From an uncultured Candidatus Saccharibacteria bacterium (GTDB lineage: Bacteria > Patescibacteriota > Minisyncoccia > Phycocordibacterales > PALSA-1337): DNA of 30,285 nt. The notes under the pieces were generated by a model that saw only the letters and a list, made by a program, of their open reading frames with translations, did no database searches and was not told the origin of the DNA. Where the stretch lies: assembly GCA_964619985.1 (NCBI GenBank), contig CAZUII010000002.1:1-30285 (forward strand), read 5' to 3'. The number at the start of each line of letters is the position of its first letter. The first letter of the stretch is position 1. The position numbers and the translations under genes are program-made. Below, piece after piece: positions 4,291-26,060 of this stretch.

Positions 4291-4893
4291 ATGGAAATAC
4301 AGTCACCGTTTCAGTCAGTGTTGAGTTCATATGTTACCGGTCGTGCCGGTGTCTTCATTGATGAGTCGAATCTATTTCATTCCCAGAAAACACTCAAGTG
4401 GCGTATTGATTATAGCAAGATGTATTGGATGTTGCGTGATTTGGACCTGGGCACCAGAAACATATTTGTCTATACGAGTTTTCTAAAAGAAAGCCAAAAA
4501 CAACTTGATTTTATTGATAAACTTGTTGAATACGGCTATTTTGTGCATAGCAAAGTAGTCAAAGAAATAAAATCACAGTCAGGTTCAATTGTACGAAAAG
4601 GAAATCTCGATATTGAATTAGCACTTGACGCTTATCAATTTTCGCATATGTACGATACTATAGTACTTTTTTCCGGTGATTCCGATTTTGCTTATCTGTT
4701 GGATTTGTTAAAAGATATGGGTAAAAAAATAATTGTCGTATCCAACAAGAGACATGTGTCCAGGGAATTATTGAGAAGAGGTTATTTCGTTGATCTAAAT
4801 TCCTTAAGGTTTTACATAGAAAAACACAGAACCACCCCCGAAAGAGTGGTTCTGGACGGTACTACATCGAGTAGTCTAGCAAAAATCACCTGA
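4291..4893 (+). CDS. NYN domain (LabA/DUF88, PIN-like) putative ribonuclease
   Basis: Acidic motifs VFIDESNL, KGNLDIELALD and LFSGDSDFAYLL; AT-rich (about 32-37% GC in sampled lines). Confidence 0.9.
   Translation: MEIQSPFQSVLSSYVTGRAGVFIDESNLFHSQKTLKWRIDYSKMYWMLRDLDLGTRNIFVYTSFLKESQKQLDFIDKLVEYGYFVHSKVVKEIKSQSGSIVRKGNLDIELALDAYQFSHMYDTIVLFSGDSDFAYLLDLLKDMGKKIIVVSNKRHVSRELLRRGYFVDLNSLRFYIEKHRTTPERVVLDGTTSSSLAKIT
4820..4866 (-). ncRNA. Candidate ~50-nt cis-antisense RNA over the 3' end of the NYN gene
   Basis: Lies downstream of the promoter at 4873-4900. Ends in hairpin CAGAACCAC/GTGGTTCTG (4827-4854) followed by UGUUUUU on the minus strand. Start site inferred. Confidence 0.5.
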
Positions 4894-7290: not shown

Positions 7291-7303
7291 GATAGTGTGG
7301 CGG

Positions 7304-8860
7304 TTATATTTTTTCGACAGTCTGAACGGCTTCGATACGATCGCCTGGGGCAACTTCTACCTTTGCCTCGAGCATCATGCCAAATTCGAATCCTTCGCGT
7401 ACTTCAGATGTAGTTTTCTTGGCCTGCTGGAGTCCGCGGATCTTGCCGCGGCCGATCTCCGCTTCGCGGCGCATAATTCTGACATCATTGCCGCTCCCGA
7501 TCGTGCCGGTTTCAACTTTTCCTCCAACAACCTGCTTGTCCTTGTCCTTTGAGAAGACAGCCAAGAGCTTGGCACGCCCGGTCATTTCTTCTACATATTG
7601 CTTTGGGATTTTGGCAGTCAGAGCATCTTTCACGTACTGAGTCAGTTCGTAGATAATGTCGAAATTTTTGACCGACAGAGGGATGGCAGAACGCTCGATC
7701 ATGTCAACCGCTTTCTTTTCAGGAGTGGCATTAAAGCCAAGAATGAGAATCGTCGGATCCCCGAGCGCGGTCTTCACATCGGTTTCGTTGATGTCGCCAA
7801 TGCCTTCAGATACGATCTTGAGTTGAACGCGGTCATGCGTAATTTTTGCAAGCTCATGCTTTACACCATCGAGACTGCCGATAACATCCGCTTTGATAAT
7901 GATAGGAACGGTGATTATTTGCGGCGCATCTTCTGATGAAGTGTCTGAACCGGTTTTTGGAGCCGCCTTTGTGGCTGCTTGGTGCTTTGTGTTTCGCGCT
8001 TGGCTTTCATACGCTTCTGCCATCTTTTCGGCTTCTTTTTTATTTTTCACTGTCACAAAATCAATACCACAGGCCGGCATGGTATTCCAACCAAAGATAC
8101 GTACAGGCATTGAGGCCGTAGCTGTTTCTATTTTCTCTCCTTTGAAGTTTTCAATGAAGCGAACGGGGACATAGGCATTTCCTGCGACGACGCATGAGCC
8201 GATGCGCACTGCGCCGTTCTTGATAAGTAATGTGGCGGAAATCCCTTTCCGAGTGTCAAGGGCCGATTCGATGACATTGCCTGTGGCCGGAACATTCGTA
8301 TCTGCTTTGAGGTCCGCCAACCCTGCCATGAGGATGATCATGTCAAGCAGTTCCGGAATGCCCGCGCCACTCACCGCCGAAACCTCGACGCAAGGAACAT
8401 CGCCACCCCATCCTTCGACATAGATTTCATTTTCTCCTAGGCTTTGCTTGGCTTTTTCGACGTTGGCATTTGGCTTGTCTATTTTGGTAATGGCAACGAC
8501 GTACGGTATTTTCGAAGCTTTGATGACGTTATATGCCTCAACAGTCTGTGGTTTGACGCCGTCTTCGGCAGAGACAGCCAGGATGGCAATATCGGCGGCT
8601 TGCGCACCGCGCTCGCGGATACCACAGAATGCCTCGTGACCGGGGGTGTCCAAGAAGGTCAGGGTGGTCTTAACGCCATCAGGGGAAACATGCTCAACTT
8701 GGTAGGCACCCATGTGTTGTGTAATGCCACCTGCCTCGCCGGCTACCACATTTGCTTTGCGGATATAGTCGAGGAGCGTTGATTTGCCATGGTCAATATG
8801 CCCCATCACCACGATGACAGGGGGGCGTACAATCAGGTTGTTCTGATCTTTGGTAGGCAT
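7304..8860 (-). CDS. infB: Translation initiation factor IF-2 (short form lacking the N-terminal domain)
   Basis: RPPVIVVMGHIDHGKSTLLD, GGITQH, FLDTPGHEAF, IIKADVIGSL. Confidence 0.97.
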   Translation of the reverse strand: MPTKDQNNLIVRPPVIVVMGHIDHGKSTLLDYIRKANVVAGEAGGITQHMGAYQVEHVSPDGVKTTLTFLDTPGHEAFCGIRERGAQAADIAILAVSAEDGVKPQTVEAYNVIKASKIPYVVAITKIDKPNANVEKAKQSLGENEIYVEGWGGDVPCVEVSAVSGAGIPELLDMIILMAGLADLKADTNVPATGNVIESALDTRKGISATLLIKNGAVRIGSCVVAGNAYVPVRFIENFKGEKIETATASMPVRIFGWNTMPACGIDFVTVKNKKEAEKMAEAYESQARNTKHQAATKAAPKTGSDTSSEDAPQIITVPIIIKADVIGSLDGVKHELAKITHDRVQLKIVSEGIGDINETDVKTALGDPTILILGFNATPEKKAVDMIERSAIPLSVKNFDIIYELTQYVKDALTAKIPKQYVEEMTGRAKLLAVFSKDKDKQVVGGKVETGTIGSGNDVRIMRREAEIGRGKIRGLQQAKKTTSEVREGFEFGMMLEAKVEVAPGDRIEAVQTVEKI

Positions 8861-8943
8861 GGTAGTGATTCCGGCCAGAATACGCTAGAGAATTAGAGTG
8901 TAGCAGAAATTGTCCAAGTAGGCTATTATTGGGTTTCAACGAT

Positions 8944-9630
8944 ATGAAACTCTACTTTTTGCCGCCGCTGTTCCTTCAAAAATGTATCTGGATACCATGC
9001 CGCCTTATATTTCAATTTTTTGCCCATCTCAAGGTTGAGGGTCTCGAAAACCTTGCCGGCCTCGATACCAATGTCATATTCGCCACCAACCACGCCAGCG
9101 AACTCGATCCCTTCCTCGTGCCTACAGCCTTGCCATTCTGGTCCCGGTTTTCGCCCTTGTTTTATATAACCCGTGAGAAGTCGTTTTATGACACCAACGG
9201 CTGGCGAAAGCACCTCTTTGGGGGTCTTTTTATCAATGCCTGGGGAGGATATGGCGCCAAAGTCGGTCTCAATGATTACAAAAAATCCTTGATACCGCAC
9301 ATGGAAATCGTCGATGATGGGGGTAGTTTCTGCATCTTTCCCGAGGGACGCCGCAGTCCCGATGGCACCATTCAACCGGCAAAAGGAGGTGTCGCCTATC
9401 TTGCCGAATATGCTGGTGTTCCTATTGTCCCCGTCGGCTTTTCAGGCACCTTCCATACCCCCGTAAAGGATTTTTTTCTCCGCCGCCGCCACATCACCGT
9501 GCGTTTTGGCCGGCCGATTCACCAGGCGGAGCTGCTCGCATCTGTTTCCCGTTCGACCACGTTCGGTGGCAATGTCTACAAGGAGGAGGCCGCCTATGTT
9601 ATGGGAAGGGTTGGTGAGTTGTTGGATTAA
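8944..9630 (+). CDS. Lysophospholipid acyltransferase family protein (PlsC-like)
   Basis: NHASELD (NHx4D) and IFPEGRRS motifs, PIVPVG. ATG at 8944, or TTG at 8929. Confidence 0.88.
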   Translation: MKLYFLPPLFLQKCIWIPCRLIFQFFAHLKVEGLENLAGLDTNVIFATNHASELDPFLVPTALPFWSRFSPLFYITREKSFYDTNGWRKHLFGGLFINAWGGYGAKVGLNDYKKSLIPHMEIVDDGGSFCIFPEGRRSPDGTIQPAKGGVAYLAEYAGVPIVPVGFSGTFHTPVKDFFLRRRHITVRFGRPIHQAELLASVSRSTTFGGNVYKEEAAYVMGRVGELLD

Positions 9631-9661
9631 AATCTTTTATCAGCGAGTTGCCTGCCTGCGC

Positions 9662-10663
9662 TTATCGTTCGTTTACCGTCGAATCGGTTATCTTTGTGTG
9701 GGCCGAATTCTCAATGCGGTCGGCATATGCCTTTTTAAGTTCGTTGGAGAGTTTATCTATTTGTTCCTGCTGCTTGATCTCGTTCAGCGTACTGCGAATG
9801 AGGAGGATGCCGAAAATGACGCTTGTCGCAAGAACGGCAATTCGGATGGCCAAATCCTCATGCGTCTTTGCGGTAAATATCTGAAACACCAGCGTCACCC
9901 ACAGTATAAATATGACCACTTCGATTGCGATAACCCGTATGTTGAATAGCCGGTGTTTTGTGATTGAGTAGGCGACGAATAGTAGGAAGATGAGGAAGCC
10001 GACATTGTCTGTCCCGCCAAAGGGCAAAATTGAAAAAAATGGTAAAATAAAACTACTAAAACAAGTTACTAAAAGTGTAATTGATGCCCCGTGCTGAATG
10101 TTCCGAAATTGTTTACTTTGCTCCTCATTTGATGCTGTAATTTTAGCTTTATGAAGTTTCCATATTATTAAAAATGCAGTAACTAGATAATATATTCCAT
10201 ATGGTATTAGTCCCCACCCCGGCTCCCCAAATGCCATGGATCCAGCTGCAGATTTATTATAGGAGATAAAAATAAAATTTTGTAAGTACGATCCTATGCA
10301 AAATAATAAGGTAACTATAGCCAGTAACAAGTACTTACTTTTACTGACCTTACTTTTTGTTATAAACAAGGTCCATACTAATCCCATTGATATTACAAGG
10401 GCACCAAGCGCATAAGAAGTTTGAAGCCAAGCTGAGGAGATGACGGTGTCATCCATGTAATTTGCGAATGCCCACAAAGCAGCAACAAAACTCATTATTG
10501 AAAAGACTCTGTGGTTTGCTGACTTAATGTTTTGGCTTAACACAAAAAGCCCTAATAAAAGGTTAAGACAAATCACCGCGACCTGTATTATTTGGACTAT
10601 GATAGTAAAATAATAACACGTAATTACTTGCAAATCCCCATAAATTTCTTGACCTACTAACAA
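9662..10663 (-). CDS. Multi-TM sensor-like protein (HisKA_7TM-type N-terminus) with a coiled coil but no kinase domain; start uncertain
   Basis: Aligns by eye with aa 1-295 of the 11918..13522 kinase (NLLLGLFV/NFSLSLFV, GWGLIPY/GWGLVPY, FVAYSITKH in both) and stops before the H-box. No ATG at the aligned start. Confidence 0.8.
   Translation of the reverse strand: MLVGQEIYGDLQVITCYYFTIIVQIIQVAVICLNLLLGLFVLSQNIKSANHRVFSIMSFVAALWAFANYMDDTVISSAWLQTSYALGALVISMGLVWTLFITKSKVSKSKYLLLAIVTLLFCIGSYLQNFIFISYNKSAAGSMAFGEPGWGLIPYGIYYLVTAFLIIWKLHKAKITASNEEQSKQFRNIQHGASITLLVTCFSSFILPFFSILPFGGTDNVGFLIFLLFVAYSITKHRLFNIRVIAIEVVIFILWVTLVFQIFTAKTHEDLAIRIAVLATSVIFGILLIRSTLNEIKQQEQIDKLSNELKKAYADRIENSAHTKITDSTVNER
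9957..9973 (-). repeat. Left copy of a 17-bp inverted repeat (partner at 12545..12561)
   Basis: Minus strand GCCTACTCAATCACAAA, codons A-Y-S-I-T-K. Confidence 0.85.
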
Positions 10664-10681
10664 TAGTACAATTATATTATG

Positions 10682-10690
10682 TGGTATAAT
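10682..10690 (+). promoter_or_regulatory. Extended -10 promoter for the AONS-like enzyme / kinase operon
   Basis: TGGTATAAT, 24 nt upstream of the ATG at 10715, in the divergent AT-rich spacer. Confidence 0.6.
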
Positions 10691-10714
10691 TGATGCGTAA
10701 TAATCTATACATTT

Positions 10715-11917
10715 ATGAAAAGAATTAATGAGATAATGTCATATATTGATGAGCATGCTCTCTATCCAGATTTGAGGATTGTCGAAGGTCCTCAAGATCC
10801 TGAAGTAACAGTAGATGGAAAAAAAGTTGTGATGTTTTGTTCTAATAACTATTTAGGACTGTCTACACACCCTGATTTAATCAAGGCGGCTTGTGATGCT
10901 ACTAGAAAGTATGGTGTAGGTTCAGGCGGTTCTCGTCTGTTGTCTGGTAATTTAGATATCCATAAAAAATTTGAGACTGCCATAGCGGAATTTGAAGGAG
11001 GAGAGGATGCTATTTCATGGGCTACTGGTTACGCAGCAAATTTGGGTTTGATTAGTGCAATAATGAATCCGTTAAAAGTGCGTCCAAGAGATTTTTTTAC
11101 TATTGATGGTGTAATATTTAGTGACGAACTCAATCACGCCAGCATTGTTGATGGTATTCGTCTAAGTAAACAAAAAAAGGTAGTTTACAATCATCGTGAT
11201 GTAAAAGATTTAGAGTATAAACTCAGGAAGCACCCTTTACGAAGAAAACTGGTTGTGACTGATAGTGTTTTTAGTATGGATGGTGATATAGCTCCTTTAG
11301 ATAAAATAGTTCCACTATGTAAAAAATATGGAGCCATGCTGTTGGTCGATGATGCTCATGCTACAGGCGTTCTCGGAAATAACGGACACGGTTCATTAGA
11401 GTACTTTAACCTCAAACTTGGAAGAGATGTGGATGTGATCATGGGTACGTGCAGTAAATCGCTTACATCTACTGGTGGTTTTGCTGTTGGAAATAAAAAC
11501 CTGATTTCGTACTTGAGAATAGCAAGTCGTTCTTATATGTTTTCGGCAGCCATGACTCCAGCTACGGCCGCGATTCTTATTAAGGCACTAGAGCTAATGA
11601 AGAATGAGCCAGAACGACATAAACAACTAGTAAAAAATGCGGAATATTTACGATTTGGACTACAACAAGCAGGGTTCAATACACTATCTAGTCAAACGCA
11701 AATTATACCAATACTCATTGGTACTGATGAAAATGCAATTAGATTTAGCCGTAATCTTTTTGAAAAGAATATTTATGCTCCCGCAGTTCGTTGGCCGGCT
11801 GTCGAAAAAGGAAAGGCGAGAATTCGTTTTGCCTTGATGGCATCTCACAAAAAAGAACATCTCGATGCTCTCATAAAGGCTTGTATAGAGGTCGGAAAAT
11901 CATTAAATATAGTCTAA
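10715..11917 (+). CDS. AONS / alpha-oxoamine synthase family PLP enzyme (BioF/Kbl/SPT/CqsA superfamily); substrate unknown
   Basis: SNNYLGL, GSGGSRLLSGN, SDELNHASIVDG, DSVFSMDGD, VDDAHATG, GTCSKSL (PLP lysine), ARIRF. Confidence 0.92.
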   Translation: MKRINEIMSYIDEHALYPDLRIVEGPQDPEVTVDGKKVVMFCSNNYLGLSTHPDLIKAACDATRKYGVGSGGSRLLSGNLDIHKKFETAIAEFEGGEDAISWATGYAANLGLISAIMNPLKVRPRDFFTIDGVIFSDELNHASIVDGIRLSKQKKVVYNHRDVKDLEYKLRKHPLRRKLVVTDSVFSMDGDIAPLDKIVPLCKKYGAMLLVDDAHATGVLGNNGHGSLEYFNLKLGRDVDVIMGTCSKSLTSTGGFAVGNKNLISYLRIASRSYMFSAAMTPATAAILIKALELMKNEPERHKQLVKNAEYLRFGLQQAGFNTLSSQTQIIPILIGTDENAIRFSRNLFEKNIYAPAVRWPAVEKGKARIRFALMASHKKEHLDALIKACIEVGKSLNIV

Positions 11918-13522
11918 ATGGCGGTTACACTTATTTGGGCAATTGTCGCTTTACTTAACTTTTCGTTAAGTTTGTTTGTTATAACTCAGAATTACAGGTC
12001 CATGAGTAACAGGTTTTTTGCTCTTCTAAGTTTTCTTGGAGGTATTTGGACTTTCACGAATTACATGACAGGGGTTCAGCCGACTCCTTTTTGGTCTGAA
12101 AGTACTTATGCCTTTGGAGGTTCGCTGGTTGCTGTTGGATTGATCTGGACATTAGTCATTACAAATAAAAAATTTGATAAAAGAAAAACAAGGCTGATTA
12201 TTTTTATTGCAACTGTATTCTTCTTCGGTTCATATATCCCAGGATTTATTGCAGACCCTTTTGTTCGAGTATATTTGGGCGGGTTTGAAGGTGTTCCTGG
12301 TTGGGGGTTAGTCCCGTACACAATTTTCTACTTACTTGGAGCAGTGTCTATCTTATTTAAGTTGTTTATGGCTTATAAGAAATCTACTGAATTGGATAAA
12401 AAGTCACAATTTTTATTTGTATTTTACGGAGCACTTGTTACACTTTTTATAACTGCATTTGCCAGTTTCATTTTGCCATCTTTTTCTATCTTTGCGTTTA
12501 GTGGTGTAGATTGTATAGGTTTTTTATTCTTTCTATCATTTGTTGCCTACTCAATCACAAAGCATCACCTTTTCAATATTAAAGTATTAACCACTGAATT
12601 AATTACTTTTGTACTTTGGATTTTTATACTCGTGCGCACTGTCATTGCTGATAATACGCAAGACATGATTATAGAAGGCGTTCTTTTTATACTTACTGTT
12701 ATTTTTGGAATTATTCTTATAAAAAGTGTTATTCGAGAAGTCTCCCAGCGTGAAAAAATCCAACTCCTTGCCACTGACCTTCAGAAGGCCAATGAACGCC
12801 TCACCGAATTGGATCGGCAGAAGTCGGAGTTTGTTTCGTTCGCCACGCACCAGCTTCGCGCGCCGCTGACGGCCATGAAGGGATACGCTTCGCTTGTTTT
12901 AGAGGGCGATATGGGCAAGATTACCGGCGAAACCAAAGAGGCGGTGGGGCGCATATTCGAGTCGACGAACACGCTGACAAGCATCGTGGATGATTATTTG
13001 AATGTGACACGTATCGAATTGGGTACCATGAAATACGCTTTTGAGACCATCGATCTTAAGTCGCTGGTCGAAGATGTCATAGCCGAGCTCAAACCGAACA
13101 TAGACAAGGCAACCAAGGTCAAGTTCTTGTTTGGTGCGGAGAACGCGGGCACGGATTATCGCATCACCGCCGATCGCGACAAGCTCAAGCAAGTTATTGC
13201 CAACCTCATAGACAACTCGCTCAAATATACGCCGAAGGGATCGGTGGGCGTCTCGCTGTCGTTCAACCGGGCAAAACACAAGTTCGTCTTCATGCTCAAA
13301 GATACTGGTATCGGTATTGCGCCGGAGACACTGCCGCTGTTGTTCAACAAATTCACGCGCGCAGGCAATGCAAATAAGACCAATATTAAAGGCACAGGTC
13401 TCGGACTGTTCGTGGCAAAAGAAATCGTAACTGCGCATCACGGCACCATCCGCGCAGAGTCGGAAGGGGAAGGCAAGGGTTCGACGTTTATCGTGGAGTT
13501 TGAGCCGTTTGCGAAGGCGTAG
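11918..13522 (+). CDS. Membrane sensor histidine kinase (multi-TM N-terminus + HisKA + HATPase_c)
   Basis: H-box ATHQLRAPL, N-box NLIDNSLKYT, DTGIGI, GTGLGL, GKGSTF. ATG directly abuts the upstream TAA. Confidence 0.95.
   Translation: MAVTLIWAIVALLNFSLSLFVITQNYRSMSNRFFALLSFLGGIWTFTNYMTGVQPTPFWSESTYAFGGSLVAVGLIWTLVITNKKFDKRKTRLIIFIATVFFFGSYIPGFIADPFVRVYLGGFEGVPGWGLVPYTIFYLLGAVSILFKLFMAYKKSTELDKKSQFLFVFYGALVTLFITAFASFILPSFSIFAFSGVDCIGFLFFLSFVAYSITKHHLFNIKVLTTELITFVLWIFILVRTVIADNTQDMIIEGVLFILTVIFGIILIKSVIREVSQREKIQLLATDLQKANERLTELDRQKSEFVSFATHQLRAPLTAMKGYASLVLEGDMGKITGETKEAVGRIFESTNTLTSIVDDYLNVTRIELGTMKYAFETIDLKSLVEDVIAELKPNIDKATKVKFLFGAENAGTDYRITADRDKLKQVIANLIDNSLKYTPKGSVGVSLSFNRAKHKFVFMLKDTGIGIAPETLPLLFNKFTRAGNANKTNIKGTGLGLFVAKEIVTAHHGTIRAESEGEGKGSTFIVEFEPFAKA
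12545..12561 (+). repeat. Right copy of the 17-bp inverted repeat (partner at 9957..9973)
   Basis: GCCTACTCAATCACAAA in the same codon phase as the left copy. Confidence 0.85.
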
Positions 13523-13548
13523 GGAAAATTAAAAAATGCCCGGAGAAT

Positions 13549-13582
13549 AAAAAGCGGAGCAGTACACAGAAGTGTCTGCTCC
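13549..13582 (-). terminator. Intrinsic terminator for the 67-aa ORF
   Basis: GGAGCAG-ACAC / GTGT-(bulge)-CTGCTCC stem followed by GCTTTTT on the minus strand. Confidence 0.65.
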
Positions 13583-13592
13583 ATTGCTTTGG

Positions 13593-13796
13593 TCAATCGT
13601 CGAGGTCGCCATTGGGCAGTGCTGCCCCAGCACCCCAAGCAGCTCTCAAGGGCTTCCGATTTTTCTTGCGCTCTTGAGATTTCGGTTGAACTGCTTTTGT
13701 CAAAGGCGCCTCCGTTGTTTGTGGCAAATCAATTGCCACACCATTTGCGGCCGCCCTCATAAGGGCGAACCATGTCCCAGCTTTTTCTGTGGTCAT
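13593..13796 (-). CDS. Hypothetical 67-aa protein in its own transcription unit
   Basis: Near-consensus promoter upstream, GAGG 4 nt before the ATG, terminator 10 nt after the stop. Confidence 0.65.
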   Translation of the reverse strand: MTTEKAGTWFALMRAAANGVAIDLPQTTEAPLTKAVQPKSQERKKNRKPLRAAWGAGAALPNGDLDD

Positions 13797-13849
13797 GTGC
13801 CCTCATTGGTTAATGTGTTATGTCCACAACGGACTACACTTCGGATGAT

Positions 13850-13878
13850 ATTATATCACCCCCCAACCCAAAAGTCAA
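13850..13878 (-). promoter_or_regulatory. Near-consensus sigma70 promoter
   Basis: Minus strand TTGACT (13878-13873), 17-nt spacer, TATAAT (13855-13850), with TG extended -10. Confidence 0.85.
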
Positions 13879-13892
13879 TAGCACTTCGAGAC

Positions 13893-13920
13893 AAAAAATA
13901 GCTCAATCTTGAGCCATTTT
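13893..13920 (-). terminator. Probable terminator of the lepB / HisRS-like / yqeY run
   Basis: Minus strand GGCTCA-AGAT-TGAGCT followed by ATTTTTT. Confidence 0.55.
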
Positions 13921-13963
13921 CCGCGAAAATTATCCCCAAATTATCCCCATAAAAAGGGAGGCT

Positions 13964-14422
13964 TTATTTCAACAACTCATCAACCACCGCTTTCACATCC
14001 GCACCATCGGCCTTGCCGGCCAGCTCTTTCATGATCATGCCGGTGATCCTGCCTCCAGCTTTTGGGTCAAAAGTGCCTGCGGATTTGAGCGCTTCAATGC
14101 GCTGACTCGCAATAATCTTGATTTCCTCACGGTTCATCAAGGTCGGCAGAAAAGAATTGAGAATGACAAGTTCGGCTTTTTCTTTGTCTGCCAGATCAGT
14201 GCGGCCGCCTTTTTCAAATTGTTCAATAGAATCTTTGCGCTGCTTGGCACTGCGTTTCACCAGAGCGAGCACTTTGTCATCCGGCAACAATTCCGTAGTC
14301 GAACCTGCGGCAATGATTTCATTCAAGCACAGCGCATTGAGGCCGCGCAGTACCTCGAGACGGATGGTGTCCTTTGCGCGGAGCGCGTCTTTGATGCCTT
14401 CTTTGATAGTGTGATGGAGCAT
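13964..14422 (-). CDS. yqeY: GatB/YqeY domain protein
   Basis: IKDALRAKD...KQRKDSIEQFEKGGRTDLADKEKAEL...MGxIM-like tail, ADGADVKAVV. ATG at 14422 preferred. Confidence 0.92.
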   Translation of the reverse strand: MLHHTIKEGIKDALRAKDTIRLEVLRGLNALCLNEIIAAGSTTELLPDDKVLALVKRSAKQRKDSIEQFEKGGRTDLADKEKAELVILNSFLPTLMNREEIKIIASQRIEALKSAGTFDPKAGGRITGMIMKELAGKADGADVKAVVDELLK

Positions 14423-14473
14423 GCGGTTGGTATAGGCTAATAAAATGCTGATAGGTACGGTGCGCAAGGATTG

Positions 14474-15703
14474 CTAACCGGCAATCTTTTTCATGTGTTT
14501 TGCTAGATTGTCCAGAGCGACGATCTCCTGGGCGTGAGTCTCGGTCTTGCGGACAATGGCCGTGCGCTCGACCGCCTCTTTTTTGCCCATGACTATGACG
14601 TATGGAGTATGATACTTTTCCACGGTAGATACTTGGGCTCCGAGGCGGTCTTTCGCCAGTGAAAGGTACAAAGGAATTTTGACTTGGCGCAGACTCTCGA
14701 TGACGCTCAATGAGATGTGCTTTGATTCAAGGCCGAGCTGAATGAATGAAGCCGCCGGCCGACGCATTTTACTGACGGTTTTTCGCAATTTAGGATTGGT
14801 ATCCGGGGTGAGTAATGAAATGCCCACGCCAGGCACATCACGCTTCATGCCAAGACGCTTCGCCAGGCCATTGTATCGTACGCCCACTGCCAAGACGCGT
14901 TGCTTGGTTTTCTTATTGGCGGTGTCGGTGTTGATAATAGTAAAAATGGTTTCGCTGCAATATTTGCGGTTGCCGATGAGCGAATTATTGATCAGGTAGG
15001 GGATGCCGAGGGCCTCGAGATATTCGAGTGTCTCCTCGAGGTGTCTCTTGCTGGTCTCCGAAAGAAAATCCATGGAACGCGGTGCCTTCTCATTTATCTC
15101 CTTGGCGCCGGCGCCATGCGATGCCAGAAGCTCAAAGACATCCTGTTTCATGAGCTGGCGGCATTCCGGCGTCATGCTATTGATGTTTTTGCGGTAATAG
15201 GAAGTGAGTTCGCGGGCAAATCGCGCTACGGAGTCGCGGTCGCCGATTGAATTTATCTCGACGGCCGTCGATGCGTATCCTTGTTCGGCCAGCATGACGC
15301 GGGCGGTCTGGATGAGAGTGGCTTCGGCGATGGCGCCCGATGTGCCGAGTATTTCCAGATCAGCATAACGGTGATACCCTCCTTTTTTTATCGAGCCGCG
15401 GCAGGAATCTTTGAAATAGACCATAACCGGCTGCGGAAGGGATTGCATATCGGCATCCTGATACATGCGCATGATGGCAATTTTTTCTTCGACATGAAGG
15501 GGGAGTTTGCCATGGTTCTCGGTTTCATCGTCGACATAGTCGCCTTCAAGGATGTCCTTTGCGGCATCAAGATCCGGTTTGGTGACATGCGGGCTCTTCA
15601 TCGGCGTAAATCCGTAATACACGGGAATTTCTCCTATCTTATCCAAATGTTCATACTGGACGAATGCTGAATCGGTTTTCTTTTGTTTATTTTTTGAAGG
15701 CAT
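14474..15703 (-). CDS. Degenerate histidyl-tRNA synthetase paralogue (class IIa fold plus anticodon-binding domain)
   Basis: Colinear with HisRS (YYGF..P, EILG, INSIGD, YLEALGIPY.IN..L, RY.GL, HGTP-type C-terminus), but the catalytic motifs are altered. Confidence 0.8.
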   Translation of the reverse strand: MPSKNKQKKTDSAFVQYEHLDKIGEIPVYYGFTPMKSPHVTKPDLDAAKDILEGDYVDDETENHGKLPLHVEEKIAIMRMYQDADMQSLPQPVMVYFKDSCRGSIKKGGYHRYADLEILGTSGAIAEATLIQTARVMLAEQGYASTAVEINSIGDRDSVARFARELTSYYRKNINSMTPECRQLMKQDVFELLASHGAGAKEINEKAPRSMDFLSETSKRHLEETLEYLEALGIPYLINNSLIGNRKYCSETIFTIINTDTANKKTKQRVLAVGVRYNGLAKRLGMKRDVPGVGISLLTPDTNPKLRKTVSKMRRPAASFIQLGLESKHISLSVIESLRQVKIPLYLSLAKDRLGAQVSTVEKYHTPYVIVMGKKEAVERTAIVRKTETHAQEIVALDNLAKHMKKIAG

Positions 15704-15718
15704 ACTGGTGTGTGTCGG

Positions 15719-16312
15719 TTATTCTTGATATTCGCCGGGGAATACGCCAATGGTATTGAGCGGTACCAGCCGTACGATCGGGCGCCCGATAATAAAATCC
15801 TTGCTCAACGGCCCCCAGATGCGTGAGTCCGAACTTTCGGCGCGATTGTCTCCCATGACAAAATAGTGGTCTGCTGCAAGCGTCTCATGCAACGTCTCGG
15901 CCGACAGGTGGGCGGCGTTCACATACGGTTCAGCAAGCTCGAATCCTTCAGGATGGGCGGCGTTGAAGATGCTGACCTTGCCGCGGCTGATATCCACAGT
16001 CTCGCCGGGGAGTCCGATAATGCGCTTTATGTAGTAGATGCTCGGGTTGTTGGGGTATTCAAAGACAATGACATCGCCGCGATTTGGCTGCTCAAAACGA
16101 TAACTGACGCGGTCGACGATGAGGAATTGTCCAGTGGAGAACGTGGGATCCATCGAAGCTCCTTGGACGATGAATGGTTCGGCGATGAAAAAGCGCACAG
16201 GGAGGGCAATGACGAGCGCAATGACGATGACTTGTACCCACTCGCGCAGGTTCTGCCAAAAATTCTTACGCACGGGCGATTGGGTCAAAGGAGCGGGGGT
16301 ATCTAAATCCAT
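15719..16312 (-). CDS. lepB: Signal peptidase I
   Basis: N-terminal TM, GASMDPT (Ser), YYIKRIIGLPG (Lys), MGDNR..SSDSR. Confidence 0.97.
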   Translation of the reverse strand: MDLDTPAPLTQSPVRKNFWQNLREWVQVIVIALVIALPVRFFIAEPFIVQGASMDPTFSTGQFLIVDRVSYRFEQPNRGDVIVFEYPNNPSIYYIKRIIGLPGETVDISRGKVSIFNAAHPEGFELAEPYVNAAHLSAETLHETLAADHYFVMGDNRAESSDSRIWGPLSKDFIIGRPIVRLVPLNTIGVFPGEYQE

Positions 16313-24225: not shown

Positions 24226-25230
24226 CTATGCTTTTGTGCTAGCACATGCCACAGTTATCACAAACCTCGCCCCTCTTCCTTGCCCACTTTCAACCTCGAT
24301 AGTTCCTCCCAAGTCTTTCTGCACAATCGTCTTGATTGTCATCAAACCAATCCCGCTGCCGTCTTTTTTTGTCGTGAATTGGTCTTTGAACAGGCGGGCT
24401 TGATGTTCAGGAGAAATGCCGCAACCGGTGTCGGCTACGGATAATTCGACATTCGCATCTGTTGTAATGGCAGAAATCGTCACCGTATGTTCGCGGCGTT
24501 CTCTGGAAGTACCATCTACAGCCGCTGTGTGGGCAACGCACGCGTCGATGGCATTGGAAACCAGGTTGATCAGCAGTTGATGTAGTCGTACTGGATGGAT
24601 GGGCAGGAGAATCTTTTCGGGTTGATTGACTACGATCTCCACGCCGGCCATACGCGCCTTGTATCCGAGAATGTCAGTGACAATGCCGATTTCTTTCTGA
24701 AGATCTGCGTGCACCTGCTCCTGATGCGACATTTCATCAGATACGGTCGTGCCGGACCCCAGAGATCTTTTGACGCTATCCATAAAGGAGTTCATGCGCC
24801 GAGACGATTCGGTGACTACGCGTATGGCATCTTTGGTTTTTTCCGTATAATGAGTATGCGAACCCAGCTCTTGCGCGTACAATGAGACCGCCGATAACGG
24901 GCTGATAAGATCATGGAAAAGCCCTTGCGCGAGCTTGCCGAATTCGGCGTTACGACGAAGCTCAATCATGCGCTGCTCCTCGGCGCGCATGAGTGCGGCG
25001 GTACGTTCTGAAATACGGCGCTCAAACGAAGCCCGCTCCGAATCGATAAGTTTGTCGGAAGCGTCCATGCGCGAATGCGACGATCTGATATGACGATTTG
25101 AGAGCCATAAAATGCTCACAATGAGGACAATGAGTAGTAGGTACATGACCGTATCCACCGCAGGAGCGGAGAGTGCCTCTGCGGTAGACGGTCCCTCAAC
25201 ATACGCCTGCGGGGATGCGAGGGGTGTCAT
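24226..25230 (-). CDS. Sensor histidine kinase (single TM, very small external part)
   Basis: FHDLISPL H-box, NLVSNAIDA, DTGCGI, FTTK..GSGIGL, GRGARF. Confidence 0.92.
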   Translation of the reverse strand: MTPLASPQAYVEGPSTAEALSAPAVDTVMYLLLIVLIVSILWLSNRHIRSSHSRMDASDKLIDSERASFERRISERTAALMRAEEQRMIELRRNAEFGKLAQGLFHDLISPLSAVSLYAQELGSHTHYTEKTKDAIRVVTESSRRMNSFMDSVKRSLGSGTTVSDEMSHQEQVHADLQKEIGIVTDILGYKARMAGVEIVVNQPEKILLPIHPVRLHQLLINLVSNAIDACVAHTAAVDGTSRERREHTVTISAITTDANVELSVADTGCGISPEHQARLFKDQFTTKKDGSGIGLMTIKTIVQKDLGGTIEVESGQGRGARFVITVACASTKA

Positions 25231-25316
25231 GTTATTTCAGTACCGGAAGGGAAGATACGTAATCCATACTATGTCATCATACACTTATTGGTAATAGTTA
25301 TGTCGACACATAACCA

Positions 25317-25365
25317 ATAGTACCATAGCAATTGGCGATAAAGTTTTGATAAAGAAGTGATAAAG
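25317..25365 (-). promoter_or_regulatory. Three CTTTATC boxes at 11-bp period plus an extended -10 (TGGTACTAT) upstream of the kinase
   Basis: Plus-strand GATAAAG at 25337, 25348 and 25359; minus-strand TACTAT at 25322-25317. Confidence 0.65.
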
Positions 25366-25379
25366 TTTTGCTGAAGATG

Positions 25380-26060
25380 CTACGCCGGCTGGTCAGTCAT
25401 GAGGTATCCGCGGCCTATGATATTGGTAATAAGGTCTGGTTTGCCTGATATATTGAGCTTTTTGCGGATATTACGCATATGAGTTTCAACAGTATTGGAA
25501 AATATATCACTATCGGCTGTCCAGACGTGTTCCATGATAAGCACCCTTGAAACGACGGATCCTTTGTGACGGATGAGATATTCAAGCACATCGAACTCCT
25601 TGCGAGTAAGACGAATAGGCGTGTCACCGCGGGTAACGGTATGGGCATCAAGATTCATGACAATATCCCCTGCAACCAGTATCTTTTCCGGAGCTTTGAT
25701 GGCCGGTCGGCGATGCAGTGCTTGCAGTCGCGCGTGCAATTCCTCCAGTTCAAATGGCTTGACCATATAATCGTCCGCGCCATGATTGAGTGCCGCAACC
25801 TTGGTATCGACCGCATCCGTCATTGAAAGAAAAATGATCGGCGTAGTCCGTCCCGATGCCCGGATATCCTTGCAGACGGAAAGACCGTCTTTTTTCGGCA
25901 ATGAATAATCAAGTAGAATGGCATCATAGTCATACATTTTTCCAAGAAATGAACCTTCACCTCCGTCGGAAGCGATGTCAACGGTATACTCTTTGGCGAT
26001 CAGACTATTCTTGACCACCTGGGCGAGATTGCTGTCGTCTTCTACTATAAGGATTTTCAT
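25380..26060 (-). CDS. OmpR/PhoB-family response regulator
   Basis: MKILIVEDD, ILLDYSLP, GADDYMVKPF, winged helix LTRKEF..LEYL, VETHMRNIRKKL, GRGY. ATG at 26060. Confidence 0.96.
   Translation of the reverse strand: MKILIVEDDSNLAQVVKNSLIAKEYTVDIASDGGEGSFLGKMYDYDAILLDYSLPKKDGLSVCKDIRASGRTTPIIFLSMTDAVDTKVAALNHGADDYMVKPFELEELHARLQALHRRPAIKAPEKILVAGDIVMNLDAHTVTRGDTPIRLTRKEFDVLEYLIRHKGSVVSRVLIMEHVWTADSDIFSNTVETHMRNIRKKLNISGKPDLITNIIGRGYLMTDQPA

Follow-up and report, generated by a model that had tools for sequence, protein, structure and literature searches.

A candidate exchangeable enzyme-and-sensor cassette on a conserved histidine kinase core in an uncultured Patescibacteria genome

Between positions 9662 and 13522 of contig CAZUII010000002.1 (assembly GCA_964619985.1), three genes bring together a putative small-molecule synthase and two related membrane sensors, and this locus is the subject of the present analysis. 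The stretch examined, called the window below, comprises positions 1 to 30285 of the contig, and its source is a metagenome-assembled genome (MAG) of 660 kb in 70 contigs that is 93% complete. An initial interpretation made from the letters of the DNA alone (the sequence-only reading) had placed the organism among the Parcubacteria, but the genome shares its order with a MAG that NCBI names Candidatus Pacebacteria and is instead of the Microgenomates type within the candidate phyla radiation (CPR). The central gene (10715-11917, forward strand) encodes a 400-residue alpha-oxoamine synthase (AOS) dependent on pyridoxal phosphate (PLP). Its TAA stop codon (11915-11917) is followed directly by the ATG, at 11918, of a gene for a histidine kinase of 534 residues (11918-13522, forward strand), in which a seven-helix N-terminus precedes HisKA and HATPase_c domains recognized by Pfam. 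On the other side of a divergent intergenic spacer of 51 nt (10664-10714) lies a reverse-strand open reading frame of 333 codons (9662-10663) for a kinase-less sensor made of a seven-transmembrane (7TM) HisKA_7TM domain and a short coiled linker. This protein shows 41% identity to residues 3-291 of the kinase and ends just before the position of the H-box, and TTG codons are the sole starts available at the 5' end of its gene. Both the abutting synthase and kinase genes and the divergent kinase-less paralogue had been recognized by the sequence-only reading, and both descriptions hold.

The locus is marked by a step in base composition that falls inside each of the two sensor genes. The block from 10025 to 12735 has a GC content of 35.6%, compared with 50-51% in the flanks on either side, and is among the lowest 0.2% of the genome's 2.7-kb windows. 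The AT-rich block noted earlier is real, but the value of 23-25% GC given for it exaggerated the step; 60-nt lines with 25% GC or less make up just 11% of the block. Change points in GC content at third codon positions (GC3) were located by maximum likelihood. In the kinase gene the change falls at nt 12740 (codon 274), where GC3 rises from 0.28 in the AT-rich, variable 7TM sensor half (codons 1-273, 11918-12739) to a host-like 0.66 in the conserved half (12740-13522), which encodes the linker, the dimerization and histidine phosphotransfer (DHp) domain corresponding to HisKA, and the catalytic HATPase_c domain. In the kinase-less paralogue the change falls at nt 10027 (codon 212), with GC3 of 0.30 in the variable 5' part (codons 1-212, 10027-10663) and a host-like 0.60 in the 3' part (9662-10026), which encodes the last helices and the coiled linker. 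The AOS gene has a GC3 of 0.27 throughout, whereas neighbouring genes range from 0.53 to 0.64. Thus, the proposal that both boundaries lie within the sensor genes, leaving a kinase core of host-like composition, is borne out. The step in the kinase also coincides with the place where conservation among orthologues begins, in the cytoplasmic linker after the last helix (~residue 270 in alignment A2).

Comparison across the genus reveals what is constant and what is variable at this locus. Our sample comprised 93 species representatives, with 45 loci used for GC3 and swap analysis and 40 loci typed for slot content. The genes flanking the window locus are housekeeping genes (IF-2, a PlsC-type acyltransferase, yqeY, hisS, lepB and pth), and the order shared within the genus is IF-2, PlsC-like gene, divergent 7TM gene, variable slot, kinase, yqeY, hisS and lepB. 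An orthologue of the kinase core is present in 63 of the 93 species, always in an open reading frame of ~535-570 codons, and AOS occurs in just 11. The transmitter half is 72-95% identical to that of the window kinase, which exceeds the conservation of YqeY, while the sensor half is only 24-78% identical. Besides G009, the three species with the most similar cores (93-95%) all lack AOS. Over the 45 loci, slot genes and sensor halves have mean GC3 values of 0.33 and 0.35, compared with 0.57 and 0.52 for transmitter halves and housekeeping flanks; a step of more than 0.1 occurs inside the kinase at 36 of these loci and is reversed at none. In many species the divergent 7TM gene encodes a complete second kinase (552-571 residues) and shows this GC3 step too. 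The kinase-less gene of the window is therefore best understood as a stump left from such a second kinase, transcribed in the divergent direction.

Among the 40 typed loci, at least 12 alternative gene sets occupy the slot that directly precedes the kinase. One consists of AOS with or without an ADC-like protein, an ICMT-type methyltransferase or an amidohydrolase. Others are built around an AdoMet decarboxylase with an unknown 306-residue protein; a GNAT protein with either a SAM methyltransferase or a phosphatidylserine (PS) decarboxylase; CoaC-like, CoaB-like and transglutaminase-like proteins together; or a FeeM/LuxI-like N-acyltransferase. The remaining sets contain an NAD-binding dehydrogenase, an unknown 544-residue protein, a Methyltransf_20 protein, a HAD hydrolase, a SET-domain protein, an EamA transporter and one further unknown pair. 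Three departures from the common arrangement were seen. In G019 (L017 7151-7900) and G004 (L018 107-856) a PlsC-like gene lies inside the AT-rich cassette, with a GC3 of 0.28 and directly upstream of AOS, and its product is 51-52% identical to that of the window, below the level for YqeY; the window copy (8929-9630, forward strand; 233 residues, PF01553 55.7 bits) has a host-like GC3 of 0.58 and forms the left edge of the variable region, outside the exchanged block. The locus of G471 (L187 6001-8272, in kinase orientation) has the kinase core twice in tandem, with identities of 74% and 69% to the window core. Finally, the kinase orthologue of G001 is interrupted by two TGA and two TAG stop codons and is likely a pseudogene.

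Metagenomic contigs provide a view of the same exchange in natural populations. Logan contigs from three runs in three studies of wastewater and aquatic metagenomes contain the cassette with no differences and bridge both boundaries, so an assembly chimera can be rejected as the source of the compositional step. In a further run (X10), which holds a sister strain at a depth of ~60-120, contigs match the window at 91-98% identity over 7300-10008 and 12718-16300, whereas nothing between 10009 and 12717 matches at 90% or more except 52 nt in the most conserved AOS motif. The conserved 3' part of the kinase-less gene is among the matching sequences (98% identity over 9592-9919, reaching 9996), and a single contig links 9996 with 11242 and 11293 with 12749. 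This strain therefore appears to carry a strongly diverged allele (more than 10%) of the same kind of cassette between 9996 and 12749, judged from flank matches and joins in the contigs of one strain in one population. These two breakpoints lie within ~30 nt of the GC3 change points. Close relatives swap the block of ~10027-12740 as a unit, with breakpoints at the junction of sensor and transmitter on one side and within the second sensor's stump on the other. In another run (X2) both strains are apparently present, with X10-type variants making up about one-third of flank depth over window positions 7300-9200, and cassette depth is ~10 compared with flank depths of 13-24. A Logan contig considered as the sister-strain allele (P0004, AOS 81%) was rejected, being from a separate relative (~75% nucleotide identity) in which the core has diverged too.

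A single ancient transfer that is still ameliorating can be excluded as the source of the low GC content, because synonymous sites compared between G000 and G009 have reached saturation inside the cassette as well as in the flanks (dS of at least 1.8; identity at 4-fold sites 0.35-0.42), yet GC content at 4-fold sites is 0.25-0.33 in AOS and the sensor half and 0.59-0.74 in the kinase core and hisS. Moreover, host GC3 spans ~0.3-0.9 across the genus, yet most cassettes have values of 0.2-0.3. This persistent AT-richness fits either repeated replacement that draws on an AT-rich pool or a local compositional equilibrium. The latter could stem from the loss of GC-biased gene conversion between alleles that are too diverged to recombine, as has been discussed for O-antigen loci. 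Low GC3 at saturated divergence poses a separate puzzle, namely how composition is set in non-recombining allelic DNA. The kinase core can also stand above a host of low GC content: in G037, from another family and with a GC3 of ~0.27 throughout, the core has a GC3 of 0.40-0.53 (L016 9920-11506), while its own sensor half (0.13-0.33) and the neighbouring genes fall below it.

If enzyme and sensor are exchanged together, then the type of sensor should follow the type of enzyme rather than the history of the kinase core, and this is the pattern found. Mean sensor identity is 42% for pairs of loci with the same enzyme and 26% for pairs with different enzymes; among the latter it never exceeds 38%, even at 93% core identity. 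Enzyme type changes 14 times on the tree of sensor halves (the minimum being 11), a number matched or bettered by 0 of 300 shuffles, whereas on the tree of transmitter halves it changes 28 times, equal to random expectation (shuffled mean 27.9). These comparisons indicate that each set of slot enzymes has its own sensor type. A variable synthase and sensor half are thus joined to a conserved transmitter and shuffled relative to the phylogeny of the core, an arrangement of the pherotype kind. The sequence-only reading had proposed such a swappable module on a conserved core, and we recover it both in the 45 genus loci and in the metagenomic sister strain. The accompanying claim of co-variation stands strongly between enzyme classes (14 versus 28 changes) but only loosely within the AOS class.

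The pairing of AOS with this kind of kinase extends well beyond the genus, which supports the sequence-only reading. All seven distant Patescibacteria AOS homologues examined are followed by a HisKA_7TM histidine kinase, directly or one small gene later, and each of the seven has between one and three kinase-less HisKA_7TM genes at its flanks (227-235 residues, or 399 residues with HisKA only). Upstream of AOS, some of these distant loci also encode an alpha/beta hydrolase and a long-chain acyl-CoA ligase. Likewise, FeeM/LuxI-like homologues in other genera adjoin 7TM (HisKA_7TM) kinases at three of three loci, and a PlsC-like gene adjoins such FeeM-like modules. A class-level genome search found AOS in 15 of 401 genomes, none closer than 50% identity, so it yielded no close loci. 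Adjacencies of both kinds in the CPR have already been published as predictions: a survey counted 51 CqsA homologues and 18 LuxI homologues next to putative sensory kinases (Bernard et al. 2020, mSystems, PMC7567580), and the window locus is of the first kind. In the portion of that article available to us, the enzymes are treated as CqsA homologues, and cassette exchange, a conserved core, a compositional step and other enzyme classes do not appear. Our analysis adds a genus-wide quantification, the head-to-head layout of two sensors, a dozen enzyme classes, a natural allele pair with breakpoints and the argument from saturation. Literature searches on HisKA_7TM, and on AOS together with kinases and Parcubacteria, returned nothing specific, and one on amino-lipids in the CPR returned no paper naming the CPR.

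What does the enzyme make? Its membership in the AOS superfamily is clear from the fold type I Aminotran_1_2 domain (PF00155, 210.8 bits) and from its motifs: the PLP lysine K248, the histidine H141 that stacks on PLP and the Asp/His pair D212 and H215 are invariant among 20 homologues from the CPR and have aligned counterparts in Thermus AOS and in serine palmitoyltransferase (SPT). However, the protein falls below every NCBIfam equivalog cut-off, with 419.5 versus 426.45 bits for BioF (TIGR00858), 416.9 versus 460 (NF005394) and 363.6 versus 493 (TIGR01822) for Kbl, 422 versus 535 for a BioF/Kbl-related model, and 391.3 versus 640 for Bacteroidota SPT (NF047600). The nearest solved structures are the promiscuous Thermus AOS (PDB 7POA/8S1Y, 322 bits) and then Sphingobacterium SPT (3A2B, 304 bits). 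In a tree of 146 sequences the enzyme groups in a Patescibacteria-specific clade apart from the large Kbl clade, whose sampled members do pass the Kbl cut-offs (488-711 bits). A contig scan with a degenerate pattern from the AOS alignment found, among the matches listed, mostly Kbl genes of other phyla at ~40% identity, which were used only as an outgroup. Sequence comparison places the enzyme in its own CPR-specific AOS clade, near BioF, Kbl and SPT and far from CqsA; an earlier suggestion that it is of the CqsA/LqsA type fails on both phylogeny and model scores. The AOS genes of the genus themselves occupy four separate places in the AOS tree, interleaved with other lineages.

Relatives that are 58-65% identical occur in MAGs named by their sources as Buchananbacteria, Taylorbacteria, Pacebacteria and Parcubacteria, and such proteins are routinely labelled 8-amino-7-oxononanoate synthase by NCBI and JGI. 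This label appears to be a widespread misannotation. No other biotin gene is present in the window, as reported before, and bioA, bioB, bioD, birA and biotinyl/lipoyl domains were not found in the 93%-complete genome, although positive controls in reference genomes were detected. Because both the bio genes and biotin-using proteins are missing, the genome would neither make nor use biotin, and the enzyme, which also scores below the BioF cut-off, is predicted not to be a biotin enzyme, as the sequence-only reading had proposed. Nor is it placed within the true Kbl clade, and tdh was likewise not found in the same genome, again with positive controls. Our analysis therefore corrects the annotation of proteins named for biotin synthesis in genomes with neither a biotin pathway nor biotin-using proteins.

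The sensor half has the features of a receptor. The kinase-less paralogue matches PF16927 (HisKA_7TM) at 29.2 bits, above the gathering threshold of 28.6, and kinases adjoining AOS at homologous loci carry this domain; the N-terminus of the window kinase itself has no Pfam match at E<0.01, though it is 41% identical to the HisKA_7TM paralogue. An AlphaFold2 model of kinase residues 1-310 has a mean confidence (pLDDT) of 87.6. Its top fold match among reviewed proteins is LuxN, the receptor for acyl-homoserine lactone (AHL) signals (E 3e-5, TM-score 0.60-0.62, 14% sequence identity; both structures compared are predicted models), with bundles of the G-protein-coupled receptor (GPCR) type far behind. 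This LuxN-like fold lends support to a receptor role for the sensor half. All Response_reg matches in the genome are unlinked to the locus. Elsewhere in the window (24256-26054, reverse strand), a second, conventional histidine kinase core lies beside a response regulator, and this regulator is a candidate partner for the orphan kinase.

Taken together, we consider it somewhat better than an even bet that the region is one allele of an exchangeable cassette, comprising an enzyme and a matched membrane sensor, on a vertically inherited kinase core. The locus probably makes and detects its own lipid-like molecule. Under this proposal, AOS would condense an amino acid with an acyl thioester to yield a lipophilic alpha-amino ketone, which would partition into the membrane and be bound by the co-translated kinase within its LuxN-like bundle of helices. 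Binding would switch the kinase/phosphatase balance of the conserved core, formed by the DHp and catalytic (CA) domains, which would in turn signal to an unlinked response regulator of the genome. The kinase-less paralogue, as a remnant of a second kinase, may still serve as a decoy or heterodimer partner. By analogy with autoinducer dialects, the product might be a self-made, strain-specific signal; this is the leading version of the proposal, but we advance it tentatively, with the lipid alternative described below nearly its equal. More doubtful still is the broader notion that the genus maintains a library of at least 12 enzyme-class 'dialects', each tied to its own LuxN-like 7TM sensor and all served by one conserved kinase core.

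Several observations weigh against the exchangeable synthase-receptor proposal. The kinase lacks a receiver domain and there is no response regulator at the locus. The enzyme scores 212.9 bits on the CqsA/LqsA model (NF005526), whose cut-off is 428, and CqsA structures score just 112 bits compared with 322 for Thermus AOS. The genome gave no match for an acyl-CoA ligase (PF00501) that could supply the acyl donor. The match to LuxN relates one predicted model to another, and a search of the PDB with the sensor model returned only weak GPCR-like matches, with E-values of 6e-3 or worse. Co-variation also has exceptions within the AOS class: G002 and G468 have AOS proteins that are 79% identical but sensors that are 28% identical, along with different tailoring genes, while G000 and G009 compared with G492, G458 and G460 show AOS identities of 42-46% and sensor identities of 60-64%. 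Furthermore, an adjacent enzyme and sensor would co-segregate by physical linkage alone, the kinase-core tree was used in place of a species tree, and the name of each alternative enzyme set comes from a single representative. Product, ligand and output are all inferred.

The strongest rival, which we regard as serious though still doubtful, is that the cassette remodels membrane amino-lipids. Its enzymes and the PlsC-like protein would build a strain-specific phosphorus-free or sphingoid-type lipid, the 7TM domain would sense the cell's own membrane, and pressure from hosts or phages on the cell surface would drive the diversity, much as it does for O-antigen loci. This explanation is kept alive because PlsC-like, PS-decarboxylase, ICMT and OlsB-like neighbours recur at the cassettes. 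PlsC-like genes flank the slot at most genus loci and lie inside the cassette beside AOS in G019 and G004; PS decarboxylase is found in G017 and ICMT/PEMT in G002; and a long-chain acyl-CoA ligase adjoins AOS in other CPR genomes. Ornithine lipids are made by a pathway of the pattern OlsB/OlsA/OlsG, and sets in other genera that combine FeeM/Acetyltransf_5, a methyltransferase and a PlsC-like protein resemble OlsB/OlsG/OlsA. In addition, Sphingobacterium SPT is the second-best solved relative of the enzyme. However, several cassette enzymes (AdoMet decarboxylase, CoaB/C-like, SET and HAD proteins) are not lipid enzymes, the PlsC-like gene of the window is outside the exchanged block, the score on the Bacteroidota SPT model is far below its cut-off (391 versus 640 bits), no fatty-acid-activating enzyme was found in the genome, and a sensor for membrane homeostasis need not be allele-specific.

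Less likely is the sensing of host metabolites, in which the 7TM domain would detect a compound from the host or environment, the enzyme would convert it, and cassette turnover would reflect host switching. Although the reduced genomes of the CPR (here 660 kb at 93% completeness), the chemical heterogeneity of the enzyme sets and the conservation of the kinase even where AOS is missing are in keeping with this possibility, AOS enzymes are biosynthetic and condensing rather than salvage enzymes, two of the slot families represent classical autoinducer-synthase chemistries, and the operon order of synthase then receptor fits producer-receptor pairs. We disfavour more firmly the view of the slot as an integration hot spot, where accessory genes land by chance and a fast-evolving sensor varies on its own. 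Accessory DNA is typically AT-rich, the stretch between IF2 and the kinase varies in other genes too, and co-variation in the AOS class is loose, but the AOS-HisKA_7TM and FeeM-HisKA_7TM pairings recur in unrelated contexts and different classes, the breakpoints fall within the kinase gene at a domain junction rather than between genes, and sensor type tracks enzyme type to an extent that none of the 300 shuffles reached.

Two further explanations are very improbable. Ordinary metabolism by BioF, an enzyme of biotin synthesis, or by Kbl, a glycine C-acetyltransferase of threonine breakdown, as automatic annotation would have it, can point to scores close to the cut-offs (419.5 bits on TIGR00858 and 416.9 on the Kbl model) and to the names given to relatives, but it is opposed by the missing biotin and tdh functions and by the position outside the true Kbl clade. 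Just as improbable is an inversion switch that would flip the block through an exact 17-nt inverted repeat (9957-9973 and 12545-12561), which encodes AYSITK at homologous positions of both sensors, so that either sensor half could be placed on the kinase core: no other locus of the genus has an exact run of 13 nt or more shared between its two sensor genes, G009 encodes the AYSITK motif with other codons, contigs of four metagenome runs contain no inverted joints, and a distance of 54-180 nt separates the repeat from the breakpoints, both compositional and allelic. For these first two reasons the repeat is probably a local conversion tract or a coincidence rather than a conserved inversion site, and inversion was rejected as a general mechanism. 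The kinase arm of the repeat has GC-rich codons amid AT-rich surroundings, which points to conversion of a short tract by the paralogue.

Some additional features of the window deserve mention. A promoter-like site (TTGACC-18-TATATT, 10649-10678) overlaps the divergent spacer and faces the AOS-kinase operon, although it comes from a consensus scan in which the number of sites was not above that in shuffled sequence. A local dip in GC content (32%) also occurs at 4501-4800, in a gene for an NYN nuclease. The HisRS-like gene at 14474-15703 (reverse strand) reaches only 124 bits on TIGR00442, against a cut-off of 287, and 20.6 bits for tRNA-synt_His; its anticodon-binding domain is clear, and genus orthologues are 75-88% identical, so the gene is conserved.

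The CPR bacteria are uncultured, host-dependent and poor in recognizable regulation. A sensor half that is co-exchanged with an enzyme would offer a testable handle on how they recognize kin, hosts or the state of their own membrane. If the dialect interpretation is true, near-identical strains would differ in the self-made molecule that they produce and recognize, which would amount to small-molecule recognition of kin or partners in episymbiotic bacteria. A locus with such co-exchange would also extend the pherotype principle, so far known for peptide signals of Firmicutes, to small-molecule chemistry with many enzyme classes.

Among known systems, those nearest to the locus include CqsA/CqsS of Vibrio, the closest working model, and LqsA/LqsS/LqsT of Legionella, both for quorum sensing with alpha-hydroxyketones, in which an AOS-family PLP enzyme likewise adjoins a polytopic membrane kinase without a large external domain; Legionella also resembles the window locus in having a second, paralogous sensor. 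The CqsS kinase binds its ligand CAI-1 within the transmembrane domain, and cqsA/cqsS has been described in every sequenced Vibrio species (PMC13729885). Unlike these systems, the window enzyme lies outside the CqsA family, its kinase has a seven-helix HisKA_7TM domain and no receiver domain, the locus has no partner of the LuxU/LqsR type, and the cassette is hypervariable, in contrast to the conserved cqsA/cqsS of Vibrio. LuxM/LuxN and AinS/AinR, in which Vibrio pairs an acyl-homoserine lactone synthase with a membrane kinase receptor, share with the window locus the placement of synthase and receptor kinase in one operon, and the likeness is strengthened by LuxN being the top fold match and by a LuxI/FeeM-like synthase filling the same slot in a sister species. 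However, LuxN has nine helices and a receiver domain, whereas the window kinase has seven helices and is paired with AOS rather than an acyl-homoserine lactone synthase. As for the enzyme alone, Thermus AOS and Sphingobacterium SPT share all PLP and catalytic motifs with the CPR clade, which differs from them by an 11-residue insertion ahead of the DELNHAS motif, common to the CPR relatives, and by its genomic context.

In its mode of variation, the cassette resembles agr of Staphylococcus and comQXP of Bacillus subtilis, where variable signal genes and the membrane sensor half of a kinase sit on a conserved transmitter and alleles are shuffled relative to phylogeny. The window locus likewise has a variable block of synthase and sensor on a conserved transmitter half. 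It differs in having two sensor genes head to head around the enzymes and no linked response regulator. Moreover, agr and comQXP make modified peptides, always with one enzyme type, whereas the genus described here uses small-molecule enzymes of at least 12 kinds.

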